This document shows positions 36,801-43,044 of a stretch of 64,000 nt of DNA, in pieces (position 1 is the stretch's first letter; each line of letters starts with the position of its first letter). This stretch comes from Anaeromyxobacteraceae bacterium. GTDB lineage: Bacteria; Myxococcota; Myxococcia; Myxococcales; Anaeromyxobacteraceae. Under the pieces are notes generated by a model, which did no database searches, had not been told where the DNA came from, and worked only from the letters and a program-made list of their open reading frames with translations. A program made the translations under genes and the position numbers. The DNA is taken from assembly GCA_047602405.1 (NCBI GenBank), contig JASGHJ010000002.1, positions 1,120,001-1,184,000 of the forward strand. Reading direction: 5' to 3'.

Positions 36801-37349
36801 TCACCCGTCGTCGCGAGGGAGCACGACGAGCGTGACCCGCCCCGCGCGCCGCCACTCCTTCTCGAAGTCGGCGAGCTTGCGCTCCCGGGGCCCGCGCGCC
36901 GGATCCATGGTGCGCACCCGCCCCCGCACCGCGTCGAGCCCGGTCACCACCTCGTAGTGCGGGTACTGCTTGAAGAGGTGCCGCTGCACGACGCCCACGA
37001 GCACCGGCCGCCCGCGCGCGAGCTCCCGCTCGAGGTCGGCGCGCTCGCCCTCGAGCAGGAAGGCCTGGAGCCCCTGGCTGCGCGCGTAGTCGCGGAGCGC
37101 CACCGCGCGCAGGGGCTCGCCGGCGCCCCCGGCGGCCACCGCGATGGTGCGCTGGGGCACCGGCCGATCCCAGCGCGCCAGCACCGCCGCGAGCGCCGCG
37201 GCGCCACAGCCCTCGCGGCTCGTCTGCCGGACCGTGCGGACGCCGTCCGCGACGAGCCAGCCCGACCCCGCGGGCGCCGAGGCGGAGCGGGCGCCCGCGC
37301 AGGCGCTCGCGGCGAGCGCCAGGGCGGCCGCGAGCGCGAGGCGCCTCAT
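36801..37349 (-). CDS. Stand-alone C39-like cysteine peptidase, lipoprotein
   Basis: LAASAC lipobox; RQTSREGCGAAAL (Q/C), HYEVV.G (H), DP (D). Confidence 0.85.
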   Translation of the reverse strand: MRRLALAAALALAASACAGARSASAPAGSGWLVADGVRTVRQTSREGCGAAALAAVLARWDRPVPQRTIAVAAGGAGEPLRAVALRDYARSQGLQAFLLEGERADLERELARGRPVLVGVVQRHLFKQYPHYEVVTGLDAVRGRVRTMDPARGPRERKLADFEKEWRRAGRVTLVVLPRDDG

Positions 37350-37639
37350 CGCACGGTGAGCAGCAGGACCACGAGGAGGGCCACGATGATGGCGCCGCTC
37401 GTGATGTACACGCCGCTGTCGCCGCCCGCGTAACCGCCCACCTTCGGCGCCGCCGCGCGGTCGCGCTCGGCGTACCCCTGGACCTCGCCGGCCGCGGGCG
37501 CCGGGGTCGCGGCCGGCGCGGTCTCCGCCGGCACCGCCTTCGCGTGGGTACCCCGGGCGGGGCGAGGCTCCGCGGCGCGCGCGAGCGCGGGCGCGGAGAA
37601 GAGGAGGGCGAGCACGGCCCCCAGCACGAGCTTCCGCAT
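37346..37639 (-). CDS. Small exported precursor with Gly-Gly motif and C-terminal hydrophobic helix
   Basis: MRKLVLGAVLALLFSAPALA signal, Ala/Pro linker, YAER....KVGGYAGG|DSGVYITSGAIIVALLVVLLLTVR; ATGA overlap with the C39 gene. Confidence 0.75.
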   Translation of the reverse strand: MRKLVLGAVLALLFSAPALARAAEPRPARGTHAKAVPAETAPAATPAPAAGEVQGYAERDRAAAPKVGGYAGGDSGVYITSGAIIVALLVVLLLTVR

Positions 37640-37772: not shown

Positions 37773-39117
37773 TCAGCCCGCCCGCGCCCCGAGCCGCCGA
37801 CGCACGAAGCCGATGTGCTCGCGCAGGACGTAGAACTGGTCGGCGAACGCCACCGGGAGCCTGAGCGCGTCGGCCCGGGCCTCCAGCGCGTCGAGCCGCC
37901 CCGCGAGCGCCGCCCCGTCCTCGCCGCCGCTCGCGCGCAGGTCGCGCTCGAGCTCGAGGAGCGCGCCGTAGATGCGCAAGAGCCGGAGCCGGATTCCGCC
38001 AGCGGTAGATCGTGGGCAGGAGCCGGAAGGCCGGGACGAGGAGGAGCACGAGCGGGACGAGGGCCCACAGGAACCGGTCGGCGAGGCTCGCGGCCCAGAA
38101 CGGGAGCACCTTGTAGAGCCAGCGCTTGCCCGACTGGTAGTAGCGCCGGGCGTCGTCGCTGAGGGGCAGGTCGTGCTCCCGTGCGGCGGGGAACTCCCCG
38201 GCCTTCGCGAGCAGGCCGGCGCGGCCGTGGACCTCGCGCAGCGTCTCGAGGAGGAGGTCGGAGATCGCGGGGTGCAGGTCGGCGCGCGCGACGAGCTCGA
38301 CGCTGGAGGCGGCGAGGGCGAGGTCCGCGGCGGGGAGGTTGGTCGAGAGCTCGAGGGCGCCCATGGGGATGACGAGGCGGTCGAGGTACGGGAACCTGCG
38401 GACGATGGCGTCGAGCTGCGAGAGCTGGATCGCGTGCAGCGCGGGGTGGCCGACCAGGCCCCGGATGACCTTCGGCGAGGCCGAGTCGCCCATGAGGAAC
38501 GCGGCGTCGACCTGGCCCTTCTGCAGCGCCTCGCCGAGGGCGTCGTCGTCGAGGTCGACGAACTCGGTGCCGTTGCCCGCCTCGACCCCGCTCGCCTTGA
38601 GGAGCGTGGTCGCGAGCACGCGCGTGCCGCTGCCCTCGGGGCCGACCACGAGCCGCTTGCCGTTGAGGTCGAAGAGCCGGTCGGGCGGATCGCCGCGCAC
38701 GATGATCCAGAGGGGCTGGCGCCCGATGGTGCCGAGCGAGGCGAGCTCCCGGCGGGCCTCGCCCGGCGCGGGGTCGGGCAGCTTCACGCCCACCTGCACG
38801 AAGCCCACGTCGACGTCGGCGGCCGGGTCGGAGAGCCGGCGCAGGTTCTCGAGCGAGCCGTGCGAGGGCACGAGTCGGACCGTGACCCCGCTGCGCTCCA
38901 TGGCGGCCCGGTAGCGCTCGGCGGAGCGCTGGAACGAGGAGCCGTCGGGCCCCGACGCGATCGTGATGGTCTTCGGCGGCGCGGGGCGGATCCAGTGCAG
39001 CACCGCCCAGACGCCCAGCGCGAGGACGAGGGCGAGCGGGATGGCGGAGAGGACGAGCTCGCGCCGGGAGGCGGTGGCGAGGAGCCGCCCGAGGCGGCCG
39101 GGGCTTGCCGGTTCCAT
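37773..39117 (-). CDS. TAXI-family TRAP solute-binding protein with TM anchors; frameshift near 37994 as sequenced
   Basis: PAPPKTITIASGP.GS, GSLENL, G.EGSGTR, LHPA, A.RYY.SG...L...LPFW.A. Removing one base restores YRWRIRLRLLRIYG, joining ORF 37773..37979. Confidence 0.82.
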
Positions 39118-39181
39118 GGCTGGCCCCGGTCTTACCACGGAGACCGCCCCGGGCCGGCCCGGAGCGGTCGCCCGACCCCGG

Positions 39182-42100
39182 TCAGTTCGGGATCGGGTTG
39201 TGGCAGAGCGTGCAGTACGCCGGCTTGGGGTTCTCCGGCGGGTGCTTGAACGCCCAGCGCGTCGTGTAGGTCGTGCCCGTGGAGGTGGTCACGAGCCCGG
39301 CCGGCGCGTCGTGGCAGTTGCCGCAGTCGACCGCGAGCTTCGCGCCCGCGCGGTCCACGAGGAAGTGGCGGTCCACGGTGTACGTCTTCGTGTTGCCCTT
39401 GTACGACGCGGTCACCGACGTGAGCGTGTACGGGCGCGAGTCGCCGGCGCCGCTCGCCTTCGTGGTGGCCTTGTTCCAGGCGGTGCTGACGAGGTCGCTG
39501 CCGTACTCGTGGCAGGTGTTGCACTGCAGGGTGATGAGCGTGCCCACGCCCGCGGGCGAGTTGTGGTCGTAGCCGATCGCCGCCTTCCCGCCGATGCCGC
39601 CGGTGTGGCAGGCCGAGCAGGGGTTCGCCGCGGTGTCGGGGTGGGCCAGGTTCGCGAGGCCGGCCTGGACGTAGGTCGTGGGCGCCGGCGGGGCCGGGAC
39701 GTTGAAGCCGCCCACCGTCAGGAGCGCGGGGGCGCCGGCGCCGAGCCAGTTGGGCGCCGAGGCCGAGCCGGTGCCGGGCCAGTCGTGGCACTCGCTGCAG
39801 TCCTTCGTGGTGGAGGCGTTCGTGAACGTGGAGTGATCCTGGGCCGCGAAGGTCGCCCCGGGCTTCTCGCCCAGGTGGCACGCCGAGCAGCGCCCGGTCG
39901 TCGCGTTCCTCACGTACGGCGCGGTGGACGTGAAGCTCGCGTGGAACCGCGCCTGCGCCCACTCCTTGCCCGCGATGCCCGCGGCGGTCGAGGTGCCCGC
40001 CTGCGCGTGGCAGAAGTTGCACTCGTGCGTCGTGACGTTCGAGTTCGCGTGGTCGATGCGGGCGAGCGTCGTCGAGACCACGCCCGAGGCCGCGCTCGCG
40101 GTGGTCTTCGTGGTGGAGTCGGTCACCCCGGCCGGGAGGTTGTTGCCGGTGCCCTGGACCGTGCCGTTGCCGTTCGCGGTGCCGTGGCAGGTGGAGCAGG
40201 CCGCGTTCGTGCGGCCGGCCACGTGGTAGACCGACGCCTTCGACCACGCCGACCCCGAGGCCTTCGCGTCGGCCTGGTGGCAGGGGGCGCACTCGGCGCC
40301 CTTCACGCCGGTCGCCTGGTGGCTCATCCACTGCAGCGTGTTGGACGTGCCGTTCGCGCCCTGCGGGAACGCATACGCGACGGTGCCCTGGGTCGTGCCC
40401 GCGGGGGCCGAGCCCGTGTGGCAGGCGAGGCAGGCGGTGGGCTGGGCGGTGACCTTCGGGTGGAGCGCGCCGGTCTTCCACTGCGCCGCGGTCGAGGCGA
40501 CGGTGCTCTGCGCGAGCGCGGTCGTGTGGCAGACCTCGCAGGCCTGCTGCGTGAGGACGGCCGCACGGTGGGCCATCGCGTAGGTGGTCCCCGACGTCAC
40601 GTCGGCGGCCGTGCTCGCCATGAGCGGGTAGTGGCACAGGACGCAGTCGGCCGGGACGGCGGCGCCGATGTTCTTGTGGAACGCGCCGTCGTTCCAGGCG
40701 CCGCCCACCGCCGCGGGGCCGGGCTTGTGGTGGCAGGTCGAGCAGTCGAGGTCGTCGACGCTGTTCGCGGTGACCCCGTCGATCACCGTCGCGGCCTTGA
40801 AGGTCGCCGAGTGATCCATGGAGACGAGGTGGTTCGTCCCGGCCGCCTCCACGATGCCGCCCGGCCACATCGGCGCGTGGCAGTCCGAGCAGTGCGCGGT
40901 CGGCTGCGGCAGCGGCGACACCGCGCCGTTGAGGGTCGGCTTGTAGCCCGCGAGCGCGGTGTGGAAGGTGCCGGTGGTGAAGTCGAGCACGTTGCCGCTC
41001 GCGTCGTAGGGCGCGTGGCAGTGCCAGCACTTCGTGTTGTCGGGGGCGCTCTCCGGGCCCGGGCTCACGGCCGCCGGGATGCCGGCCGAGACGTGGGACA
41101 TGCCGCCGTAGAGCGTGAGCGAGGTCGAGGTGTAGCCGGTCACGAACGTGCCGGTCCGGGTGAGCAGGAGCTCGGTGATCGTGACCTTGGAGTTCGGGTC
41201 GGAGACGATGGTGGCGCCCGGGTAGCCGCTCGCGTCGCGCCAGTCGCCGCCGGGCAGCTGGTAGCTCACGTAGGCGCCGCGGGTCACCGTCTTCGAGTGG
41301 CAGCCGATGCAGTCGCCCTTGCCCGAGGTCGCGTGGTCGAAGTTCGGGGTCACGAGCGCCGCCCACTCCGCGGGCGTGTGGCCCGGCTGGAGGTCGAGCC
41401 GCTGGCTCATGTGGCAGGCCATGCAGGTGGAGGGCTTCCGCGCGGCGTGGTCGAAGCCCCCCTTCGCCCAGTTGTGGTTCGTGCCCCACTGGCCGGTGCC
41501 CGGGTTCGCGTGGCAGACCGCGCAGTCCATGCCGTTGCCGTGCTTCACGCCGGCCGGGTTCGTGCCGTAGTCGAACGGGCTCGTCTGGAAGGTCGTGGAG
41601 AGCCAGCCGGTGGTCGAGGTCGGGCGCTGCCCCTCGTGGCAGGGCAGGCAGGTGCTCGGCGTCCCCGCGGCGGCGGTGTGGAACTTGCCGCCCTTCCAGG
41701 ACGTGACGCCCGCGCCGGTGCCCGCGTGACAGGTCGAGCACTCGCCGGTCGCGCCGTTCGCGTGATCGAACGTGCGCTGCCCGGGCGGCGCCGTCACGGC
41801 GGTCGTGATCGCGGCCGTCGGGCGCGAGTTCGCGTGGCAGTCGAGGCAGGAGGCCGGCTGGGCGCCGAGCGAGGCGTGGTAGAGCGCCGCCGGGCCGTTG
41901 CCGGTCCTGGGCGTCGCCCACGAGGCCGCCGTGGCCCCGGGGGCCACGTGGCAGGCGCCGCAGTCGGACGTGAGGAGCGGCGTCGTGCCGGGCTTGCCGT
42001 TCACCCACGCGACGGCGTCGTGCTTCATCTCGCCGGAGGCCGGGCTGCGGGCCGGGCTCGTGGCGGTCGGGCCGACGAAGCCGACCGGCATCGCGTCGGC

Positions 42101-42847
42101 GTGGCAGCTCGAGCAGGTGGTGGGCTGCGCCGTGCCCGACGCGGTGAGCGAGGCGTGCAGGACGCCGGGGAAGGCGTTGCCGTTCGCGAGCTGCGCGTGG
42201 CAGGTGTTGCAGCCCGCCAGCACCGTCGCGGTCAGGGCCGGCGACTGGTGGTCCATCGACATCGGGAGCTTCTGCGGCTGGGCGGAGAGCGAGGCGAGGG
42301 TCGTGCCGACGTAGGCGGGCACGAGCCCCGTCACCGTGACCGCGCGCGCGGGGTCCCCGACGAGCACGCCGGGGGCGCCGGCGTGCGCCCACTCGGTGGT
42401 GTTGTGGCAGGTCGCGCAGTCCTCGCCGCGGGTCGGGATGTGGGTGAAGCCGGCCTTCGGGAGGCGGGCGAACGCGGCCGCGACGTCGTGGCAAGCCGCG
42501 CAGCCGGAGGTGACGCCGGTGTGCGAGAAGCCGAGCTTGACCGGCGGGTTGTGGCACGCGAGGCAGGAGGCCGTCTCGAACCGGTACTCGGCCCGGATGA
42601 GGTGGAGCCGGTCGGTCACGTCCTTCGCGTGCGTGTGGCAGTCGGTGCACGTGACGACGGCGAACGTGCTCGGATCCGAGTGGCAGGTCGCGCACTCGAA
42701 GGCGTGGTCGCCCGTGTCGACCGGGAAGTACCGGTGGGTCGACGCGGTGATGCCCTTCGAGTCGGCGCCGCCGCCCAGGTCGCAGGCGCACAGCGCCGCG
42801 AGCGAGAGCGCAGCGAGCGCGGTCGGGCGGGAGGTCGTCTTGGTCAT
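39182..42847 (-). CDS. Very large multiheme c-type cytochrome lipoprotein (29 CxxCH)
   Basis: 29 CxxCH motifs counted by hand in 1221 aa; N-terminal LAALCAC lipobox-like signal; Thr/Ala/Gly-rich. Confidence 0.93.
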   Translation of the reverse strand: MTKTTSRPTALAALSLAALCACDLGGGADSKGITASTHRYFPVDTGDHAFECATCHSDPSTFAVVTCTDCHTHAKDVTDRLHLIRAEYRFETASCLACHNPPVKLGFSHTGVTSGCAACHDVAAAFARLPKAGFTHIPTRGEDCATCHNTTEWAHAGAPGVLVGDPARAVTVTGLVPAYVGTTLASLSAQPQKLPMSMDHQSPALTATVLAGCNTCHAQLANGNAFPGVLHASLTASGTAQPTTCSSCHADAMPVGFVGPTATSPARSPASGEMKHDAVAWVNGKPGTTPLLTSDCGACHVAPGATAASWATPRTGNGPAALYHASLGAQPASCLDCHANSRPTAAITTAVTAPPGQRTFDHANGATGECSTCHAGTGAGVTSWKGGKFHTAAAGTPSTCLPCHEGQRPTSTTGWLSTTFQTSPFDYGTNPAGVKHGNGMDCAVCHANPGTGQWGTNHNWAKGGFDHAARKPSTCMACHMSQRLDLQPGHTPAEWAALVTPNFDHATSGKGDCIGCHSKTVTRGAYVSYQLPGGDWRDASGYPGATIVSDPNSKVTITELLLTRTGTFVTGYTSTSLTLYGGMSHVSAGIPAAVSPGPESAPDNTKCWHCHAPYDASGNVLDFTTGTFHTALAGYKPTLNGAVSPLPQPTAHCSDCHAPMWPGGIVEAAGTNHLVSMDHSATFKAATVIDGVTANSVDDLDCSTCHHKPGPAAVGGAWNDGAFHKNIGAAVPADCVLCHYPLMASTAADVTSGTTYAMAHRAAVLTQQACEVCHTTALAQSTVASTAAQWKTGALHPKVTAQPTACLACHTGSAPAGTTQGTVAYAFPQGANGTSNTLQWMSHQATGVKGAECAPCHQADAKASGSAWSKASVYHVAGRTNAACSTCHGTANGNGTVQGTGNNLPAGVTDSTTKTTASAASGVVSTTLARIDHANSNVTTHECNFCHAQAGTSTAAGIAGKEWAQARFHASFTSTAPYVRNATTGRCSACHLGEKPGATFAAQDHSTFTNASTTKDCSECHDWPGTGSASAPNWLGAGAPALLTVGGFNVPAPPAPTTYVQAGLANLAHPDTAANPCSACHTGGIGGKAAIGYDHNSPAGVGTLITLQCNTCHEYGSDLVSTAWNKATTKASGAGDSRPYTLTSVTASYKGNTKTYTVDRHFLVDRAGAKLAVDCGNCHDAPAGLVTTSTGTTYTTRWAFKHPPENPKPAYCTLCHNPIPN

Positions 42848-43044
42848 GTCGTCACGCCCCAGCGTGAGGGCCGGCGGGGCTACCATTCATCGCCGGGTAA
42901 AACACTCTCCATGCTGCGGCATCCTGCCGCAAGATGGGGAAGTCAGTGGGGCTGTGGTGGAAGGTCCCACCCGGAGCGGGGAAGCGTTGAAATTCCTGGC
43001 GACACCGAGAGTGGAGTGTCGCCCGGGTGGGGAGGCCCACCCCA

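Follow-up and report, generated by a model that had tools for sequence, protein, structure and literature searches.

Two overlapping genes in the window, the 64,000-nucleotide stretch of an Anaeromyxobacteraceae contig analysed here, encode a small precursor with a predicted Sec signal peptide and a stand-alone C39 cysteine peptidase with a predicted lipoprotein signal peptide. Both ORFs, of 97 and 182 amino acids, are genuine genes, and their arrangement recurs among relatives far beyond chance. The genes, their linkage, the natural fusions between them and the conservation pattern of the precursor are matters of direct observation. It is very likely that the predicted lipoprotein C39 cuts its partner, itself predicted to be exported, outside the cytoplasm. 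The full reading, that the cut falls after a conserved Gly-Gly pair outside the cytoplasm and that the hydrophobic tail of the precursor is a self-associating envelope peptide, is on balance favoured, with modest confidence.

The gene pair and its occurrence

The precursor gene (P0001; ORF and homologs) lies at 37346..37639 and the peptidase gene (P0002; ORF, Pfam and homologs) at 36801..37349, both on the minus strand, as are all features of the pair given below. The stop codon of the precursor and the start codon of the peptidase share the ATGA at 37346-37349, GC3 is 0.95 in the precursor and 0.97 in the peptidase, and a G-rich run stands immediately 5' of the precursor ATG; no match to a sigma-70 promoter or a terminator was found at the window locus. 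The downstream neighbour in the window is a DUF3224 gene (Pfam) and the upstream neighbour an NMT1-like solute-binding gene (PF16868), and no ABC exporter or modifying enzyme adjoins the pair. This agrees with the sequence-only reading, which had also described the ATGA overlap with a stand-alone C39 gene bearing a lipobox and Q, C, H and D residues, all of which can be located (Cys17; Q42, C48, H131 and D149). PF03412 has one match in the whole genome, the window peptidase, and the precursor is likewise single-copy in a profile search. The NMT1-like gene (37776-39138, minus strand) has an apparent frame change near 38000, and a 68-amino-acid ORF at 37773-37979 resembles its natural C-terminus, which indicates a frameshift or a sequencing error. 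At 39182-42886 on the minus strand, the window also encodes a 1,234-amino-acid multiheme cytochrome c with a lipoprotein-like N-terminus, many CxxCH motifs and matches to cytochrome c7 and MtrC/MtrF.

A search with the peptidase over 301 genomes of the host phylum, Myxococcota to judge from the labels of origin of the relatives, matched 45 at E ≤0.001, 11 of them strongly (E <1e-17). Excluding the window, all nine strong loci with upstream DNA carry a small ORF of precursor build upstream, and none of 17 weak C39 loci from the same search has a precursor. A single-protein query against genome contigs found nothing; an alignment query did find matches, and the resulting scans were followed up for the best 80 of 115 genome loci and the best 80 of 264 metagenome loci. 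Among these best 80 genome loci, a precursor accompanies every peptidase scoring at least 140 bits (63/63), lying upstream in 47 cases, downstream in 13 and fused in 3, compared with 9 of 16 loci at 70-140 bits and none at the single locus below 70 bits. Since the first precursor profile was seeded solely from upstream ORFs chosen for their hydrophobic end, the downstream and fused precursors are held-out finds. The best 80 metagenome loci include a precursor in 58 of the 63 at or above 140 bits and in 4 of the remaining 17; four of the five misses are on short contigs, and one (L111) is a real miss, with full context and no precursor nearby.

The reciprocal search, with the precursor profile against 401 genomes, matched 21 at E ≤0.01. 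It yielded 15 strong places in 14 of the 401 genomes, every one with a peptidase nearby and three of them new relative to the peptidase-led search. One exception to adjacency was found (L192 and L213, on G387:C53), where the two genes are about 2.2 kb apart on the same contig and face away from each other. The coupling of a small Gly-Gly and hydrophobic-tail ORF to C39 homologues, anticipated from the window alone, is therefore not sporadic among close relatives. Seven weak precursor matches (E >0.001) were dropped, as neither part of the module was present, and a Vicinamibacteria C39 group beside recA (70-140 bits), with no precursor in the fetched flanks, was treated as a separate clade.

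The named carriers of the module belong to the Myxococcota, Planctomycetota and Acidobacteriota. Within the genus the module is patchy, with a strong match in none of 13 other genus genomes in the 301-genome search and in one of 23 in the 401-genome search, and it is therefore not essential. On a quick tree of the peptidases, gene order must have changed twice or more. The window peptidase (L001) clusters there with L031 and with a clade rich in Polyangia, and most Anaeromyxobacteraceae copies fall elsewhere, a hint that the window copy may have been acquired by horizontal transfer.

Natural fusions of the two proteins occur at eight loci, representing six distinct sequences with 71-81% identity to the first, and read in one frame through the lipobox, the C39 domain, a variable linker, the leader and the tail. 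They form one clade within a peptidase-first Polyangiaceae group (SH-aLRT 94, quick tree) and therefore reflect one event, kept since. The fusions give the clearest sign that the small protein partners this peptidase. Furthermore, the piece of a fusion before the predicted cut would stay tied to the lipoprotein, so that nothing soluble could be released from it.

No third gene is common to the family, by clustering of flanks and among 126 immediate neighbours, and none of these 126 encodes a peptide exporter or a peptide-modifying enzyme. Two of them are ABC-F-type ATPases on the opposite strand. Roughly a dozen others come from families that are often linked to general stress, including OsmC, ferritin-like, DUF5670, BrkB and OmpA. 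At 13 Polyangiaceae loci (L076:5909-6595 and 12 others), a conserved unnamed protein with features of an outer-membrane barrel is encoded directly after the precursor or fusion gene; its tie to the module is a lead only. Acidobacterial C39s have TPR proteins beside or fused to them, some with POTRA and weak Omp85 matches. Three acidobacterial arrangements, at L099:4938-7085, L103:4941-6983 and L096:2061-3677, have a C39 fused to, or placed before, TPR, POTRA and an Omp85-like barrel beside recA, and no precursor was found in their fetched flanks. The window locus has neither of these two types of outer-membrane gene.

Leader, tail and peptidase

The precursor begins with a predicted Sec signal peptide of about residues 1-22 (37574..37639), followed by an Ala/Pro-rich linker (37487..37573) and a conserved leader (37421..37486), which comprises a Y-A-x-R-E helix, a hydrophobic residue at -7 and an aromatic residue at -4 and ends in Gly72-Gly73 (codons at 37421-37426), as drawn from alignments and the predicted fold of a fused relative. 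The predicted cut falls after Gly73 and would leave the hydrophobic C-terminal core of 24 residues (37349..37420) as the mature product, judging by the conservation pattern. This anatomy bears out the first description of a 97-amino-acid ORF with a signal-like N-terminus, an Ala/Pro linker, VGGYAGG and a hydrophobic end of 24 residues; the stop codon follows exactly 24 residues after the motif, and an A-x-A site closes the hydrophobic N-terminus. The first Gly-Gly of the window precursor was rejected as the cut site, as it is not conserved and only the second pair (G72-G73) is.

Motifs were counted in 200 precursors of less than 75% identity, drawn from 271 with tails of 20-28 residues; precursors with longer tails or of acidobacterial type were set aside, as were two mis-anchored rows. 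Gly-Gly occurs in 195 of the 200 and Ala-Gly in the other 5, so the conservation of the pair expected from the window was borne out, with an invariant glycine at -1 and alanine tolerated at -2. Upstream of it, Tyr is found at -17 in 182, Arg at -14 in 179 and Glu at -13 in 178 precursors, Leu, Ala or Val at -7 in 196 of 200, and Ala at -12 in 106 of 149; the aromatic residue at -4 served as the counting anchor, so its count is not independent. The window precursor carries a one-residue insertion in its leader. Pairwise identity in the linker is 0.14 against 0.12 expected from composition, and the leader stands above background.

The leader starts 26-86 residues into the homologs, behind a signal-like segment. 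Of 134 independently called precursor homologs, 118 begin with a hydrophobic segment, and a signal-like N-terminus is found in 73 of 75 locus-derived precursors, whose starts were chosen to favour it. In addition, four of the best 150 profile matches (P0040, P0076, P0130 and P0139), judged by eye from eight pattern matches, appear to have a lipoprotein-type signal on the precursor. The leader-tail module is thus carried by three export signals, namely a cleavable signal peptide, a signal of lipoprotein type and, in the fusions, the lipoprotein peptidase itself, and this diversity counts in favour of a location outside the cytoplasm.

The tail is 22-26 residues long in 132 of 146 unfiltered rows (duplicates included). 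It opens with a short run of Val/Ile, continues with three or four small residues and closes with about 14 hydrophobic ones. Counted from the end, Leu occupies -10, -6 and -2 in 76-84% of the 200 precursors and Val or Ile occupies -8 and -7 in 82-91%. Leu thus recurs at every fourth residue with Val/Ile between. The periodicity is strongest at 90 degrees, and a position-shuffle test gives p 0.003 when the rows are aligned on their C-termini and 0.0004 when they are aligned on Gly-Gly, values for relatives that are not independent; this Leu stripe could stem in part from shared ancestry. Tail identity is 0.33 against 0.19 expected from composition, mean GRAVY is 2.67 and charge is nearly absent: Lys or Arg falls within the last four residues of 11 of 200 precursors, and the window protein has one Arg. 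A small number of Planctomycetota and metagenome relatives have longer, different tails, which exceed 28 residues in 8 of the 146 rows, one of them mis-anchored. At L063, L066, L050, L129, L133, L137 and L163, the same leader precedes tails that are amphipathic or of greater length, and some of these have extensions with Cys or rich in His or Gly; L163 and L124 have two precursors each. These relatives could be a more diversified, secreted-peptide form.

The window precursor has no meaningful family match in Pfam or NCBIfam, and its profile has no match among solved structures beyond one at E 0.15; Atlas searches led to unnamed clusters only by features and to nothing convincing by structure. 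The profile matches 1,325 clusters (50% identity) at E ≤0.001 and 719 at 1e-10. The best 150 matches are all of 50-193 amino acids, with the motif at the C-terminus and no cargo domain.

The peptidase has a predicted lipoprotein signal peptide ending at Cys17 (37299..37349, from the lipobox pattern) and passes the Pfam Peptidase_C39 cut-off (PF03412; 45.3 bits, cut-off 22). Its catalytic residues span 36903..37226, with Q42 at 37224-37226, C48 at 37206-37208, H131 at 36957-36959 and D149 at 36903-36905, and all four are invariant in 83 of 83 aligned sequences. The lipobox pattern is found in 65 of 75 homologs, and the other ten have a Cys at the same place by eye. None of the lipobox-matched homologs has Asp at +2; under the E. 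coli rule this would allow sorting to the outer membrane, and the rule may not hold in Myxococcota. The closest solved sequences are the PCAT peptidase domains of ComA, LahT and PCAT1 (E ~1e-10), and in structural comparison the domain is about as near to PCAT peptidases as to a stand-alone C39-like protein and to phytochelatin synthase (Z 16.2-16.6, rmsd 2.0-2.9).

The interplay of leader and peptidase was modelled with AlphaFold2 on the Polyangiaceae fusion L081 (60 rows), used rather than the window pair. The fold has a mean pLDDT of 87.8 and a pTM of 0.84, with pLDDT of 51-60 in the linker and of 90 and 94 in the leader, and places a short strand right after the Gly-Gly, followed by the final helix. 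When the last 75 residues were folded alone with the same six fusion rows, pLDDT was 62, 56 and 65 over the corresponding blocks and pTM 0.25, and the strand was absent. The comparison suggests that the leader and the first tail residues dock on the peptidase, as read from the confidence scores, and the docking signal may copy solved peptidase-leader complexes.

Relation to known systems

The module is best placed as a probable divergent branch of the PA2779/PA2778 kind (NF033919/NF033920; Pfam DUF6627), outside it by cut-off. The architecture of PA2779 members, a small exported protein with a signal peptide, a Gly-ending motif and a hydrophobic tail beside an exported C39, is found in the window pair. 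The best NCBIfam match of the peptidase is NF033920, at 44.8 bits against a cut-off of 150 and over model positions 13-148 of 255, and the fused relatives reach 60-65 bits. The window precursor has no match to NF033919 (cut-off 40 bits) at E ≤1, and NF033919 has none in the 301 genomes of the phylum, module carriers included. Three of seven tested acidobacterial neighbours from the same search pass NF033919, and acidobacterial leaders align in register with those of this family (hhalign probability 47%, E 2e-4, 24 columns), with L004, L007 and L104 as bridging forms. The likeness to PA2779/PA2778 noted from sequence alone holds as an analogy and probably as distant homology, although neither protein reaches the family cut-offs. 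There are also differences: PA2779 members have a helical pro-region where the present family has a disordered linker, and in the present family the tail ends at the C-terminus and both reversed gene order and peptidase-precursor fusions occur. Literature searches, with most subscription papers outside their reach, turned up passing mentions, for example as a neighbour of bswR in the accessible text of one paper (PMC3985676), and no work on the function of either PA2778/PA2779 or the present branch, in line with the earlier description of the pair as uncharacterised.

With the double-glycine and PCAT systems (ComA, LahT, PCAT1), the module shares the C39 fold, the catalytic residues and a leader that ends in Gly-Gly, is hydrophobic at -4 and -7 and has a small hydrophobic residue at -12; the available text of PMC10885120 gives hydrophobicity at these three positions as the rule for C39 leaders. 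In contrast to those systems, no ABC transporter is present, the peptidase is a stand-alone predicted lipoprotein of 182 residues, and the leader is internal, behind a Sec-type signal. The motif also differs: it is [GA]-G here, whereas the GG/GA/GS rule given for double-glycine leaders in that text (PMC10885120) amounts to G-[GAS], with the variable position on the opposite side. By analogy, the module may work like a double-glycine system moved behind Sec.

Other stand-alone, Sec-exported C39 peptidases are FapD, of the Pseudomonas Fap amyloid system, and NCBIfam FilB. FapD is the tested precedent for a C39 that works in the periplasm and needs its cysteine, and its target is left open in the part of the paper available (PMC5557850). 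Here, by contrast, the predicted substrate is a single small partner protein whose Gly-Gly site is clear, the window peptidase scores 10.6 bits against the FapD cut-off of 330, and no Fap-like operon is present; neither Fap or Fil family scores nor their operon partners were found for the window pair or in the neighbourhoods of its relatives. GlyGly-CTERM proteins, as described in the accessible part of PMC3237569, share a signal peptide, Gly-Gly, a hydrophobic C-terminal segment and, when there is a single target, an adjacent gene for the protease, rhombosortase. The module differs from them in lacking a basic cluster, cargo domains and paralogues and in having a papain-fold C39 partner instead of an intramembrane protease; the best rhombosortase match (TIGR03902) in the genome is 53.8 bits against a cut-off of 84. 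With their rare terminal Lys/Arg, the tails are also unlike tripartite sorting signals as defined in the available text of 10.1101/2023.06.07.544157.

Proposed processing and its alternatives

In the proposed mechanism, Sec would export both proteins: the precursor would bear a cleavable signal, and the peptidase would become a lipoprotein. The leader helix would then dock on the peptidase, as the predicted fold suggests, in the -4/-7 register of double-glycine leaders seen in the alignments, and Cys48 and His131 would cut after Gly73, as expected from C39 chemistry. In the last and weakest step, the freed uncharged tail would stay in a membrane and pack against itself through its Leu stripe; until then, the leader would hold this very hydrophobic segment from assembling before it is correctly placed. 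The exact bond cut is uncertain, given that the glycine at -1 is invariant with Ala allowed at -2 and that one C39 toxin is cut between the glycines, as reported in the accessible text of 10.64898/2026.05.07.723447. A PA2779-family gene of Pseudomonas stutzeri is in the top 3% of transcripts under four conditions, according to the part of PMC10155442 available, and such high transcription fits an abundant product, though from a distant relative.

One alternative, which appears unlikely, makes the small protein a propeptide or inhibitor tethered to the membrane. It would keep the peptidase inactive or confine it to the inner membrane, and the real targets would be other envelope proteins. A leader docked in the site, as modelled, would fit an inhibitor as well as a substrate, and strict one-to-one pairing and fusion are also compatible with it; in addition, a transposon screen picked out PA2778 as a potential type VI toxin whose immunity gene would lie downstream (10.1101/733030, in the text available). 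However, this explanation leaves the fixed length and position-specific pattern of the tail unaccounted for, the Gly-Gly register matches that of cleavable leaders, and no recurrent target gene lies nearby. The tail might instead be a mere membrane anchor or sorting signal, with the linker and leader helix shed as the product in a sortase-like manner, since signal peptide, Gly-Gly and hydrophobic end follow the general plan of C-terminal sorting signals (PMC3237569, accessible text) and in acidobacterial PA2779-type relatives the stretch ahead of the motif is larger and better conserved. That too is improbable: the unconserved linker and the fusions, whose N-terminal part remains on the lipoprotein, argue against a shed N-terminal product, tail ends with basic residues are rare (11/200), there is one copy per genome, and the short profile matches (50-193 amino acids among the best 150) leave no cargo domain. 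The fixed tail length and pattern indicate that the tail is more than a tether.

A released tail acting on other cells as a membrane-active toxin or signal peptide, the Sec-exported counterpart of class II microcins or pheromones, had been among the roles offered by the sequence-only reading. Double-glycine leaders usually head bacteriocins and pheromones (PMC10885120, available text), the distribution is patchy, the window copy stands apart from most Anaeromyxobacteraceae copies in the quick tree, and the L133 and L137 tails are amphipathic and more variable. The typical tail, on the other hand, is nearly uncharged, extremely hydrophobic and conserved rather than diversified, with one per genome, and neither the 126 immediate neighbours nor flank clustering revealed a recurrent immunity, exporter or receptor gene, nor is a recurrent pilus gene nearby. 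These roles thus found no support and are decidedly improbable; a structural, self-associating membrane peptide would fit better. Least probable is a peptidase that acts as a transpeptidase or cuts between the glycines, yielding a modified, linked or Gly-extended product instead of a free Asp74 N-terminus. Phytochelatin synthase ties with C39 domains in structure (Z 16.6 vs 16.4), the reported cleavage between glycines for one C39 toxin provides a precedent (10.64898/2026.05.07.723447), and -1 is an invariant glycine, but the sequence is closest to the hydrolytic PCAT domains (E ~1e-10) and a cut behind the second glycine is what the -4/-7 register suggests.

The preferred reading, a cut after Gly-Gly that frees a self-associating tail, can be extended to a minimal, transporter-free pathway in which a lipoprotein C39 in the periplasm would strip the internal double-glycine leader from a Sec-exported precursor and so yield an uncharged helix of 23-25 residues, which would build a ring, sheet or filament of the envelope by self-assembly. 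A single lineage would have compressed this pathway into a single self-cleaving lipoprotein, and others would have paired it with outer-membrane barrels that deliver the peptide outward; this broader picture is tentative and rather doubtful as a whole. The precursor family is large and has been missed by Pfam and NCBIfam. The fusions name the substrate and offer a one-gene assay for modules of the PA2779/PA2778 kind, and leader removal, a task for which the available text of PMC10885120 expresses the need of a tool, could be a use for a stand-alone C39 whose leader is short and defined. If the preferred reading is true, double-glycine processing operates after Sec export with no transporter involved, and there is a bacterial class of very small envelope peptides, most of which, to judge from their scarcity of Lys and Arg, trypsin-based proteomics would overlook.
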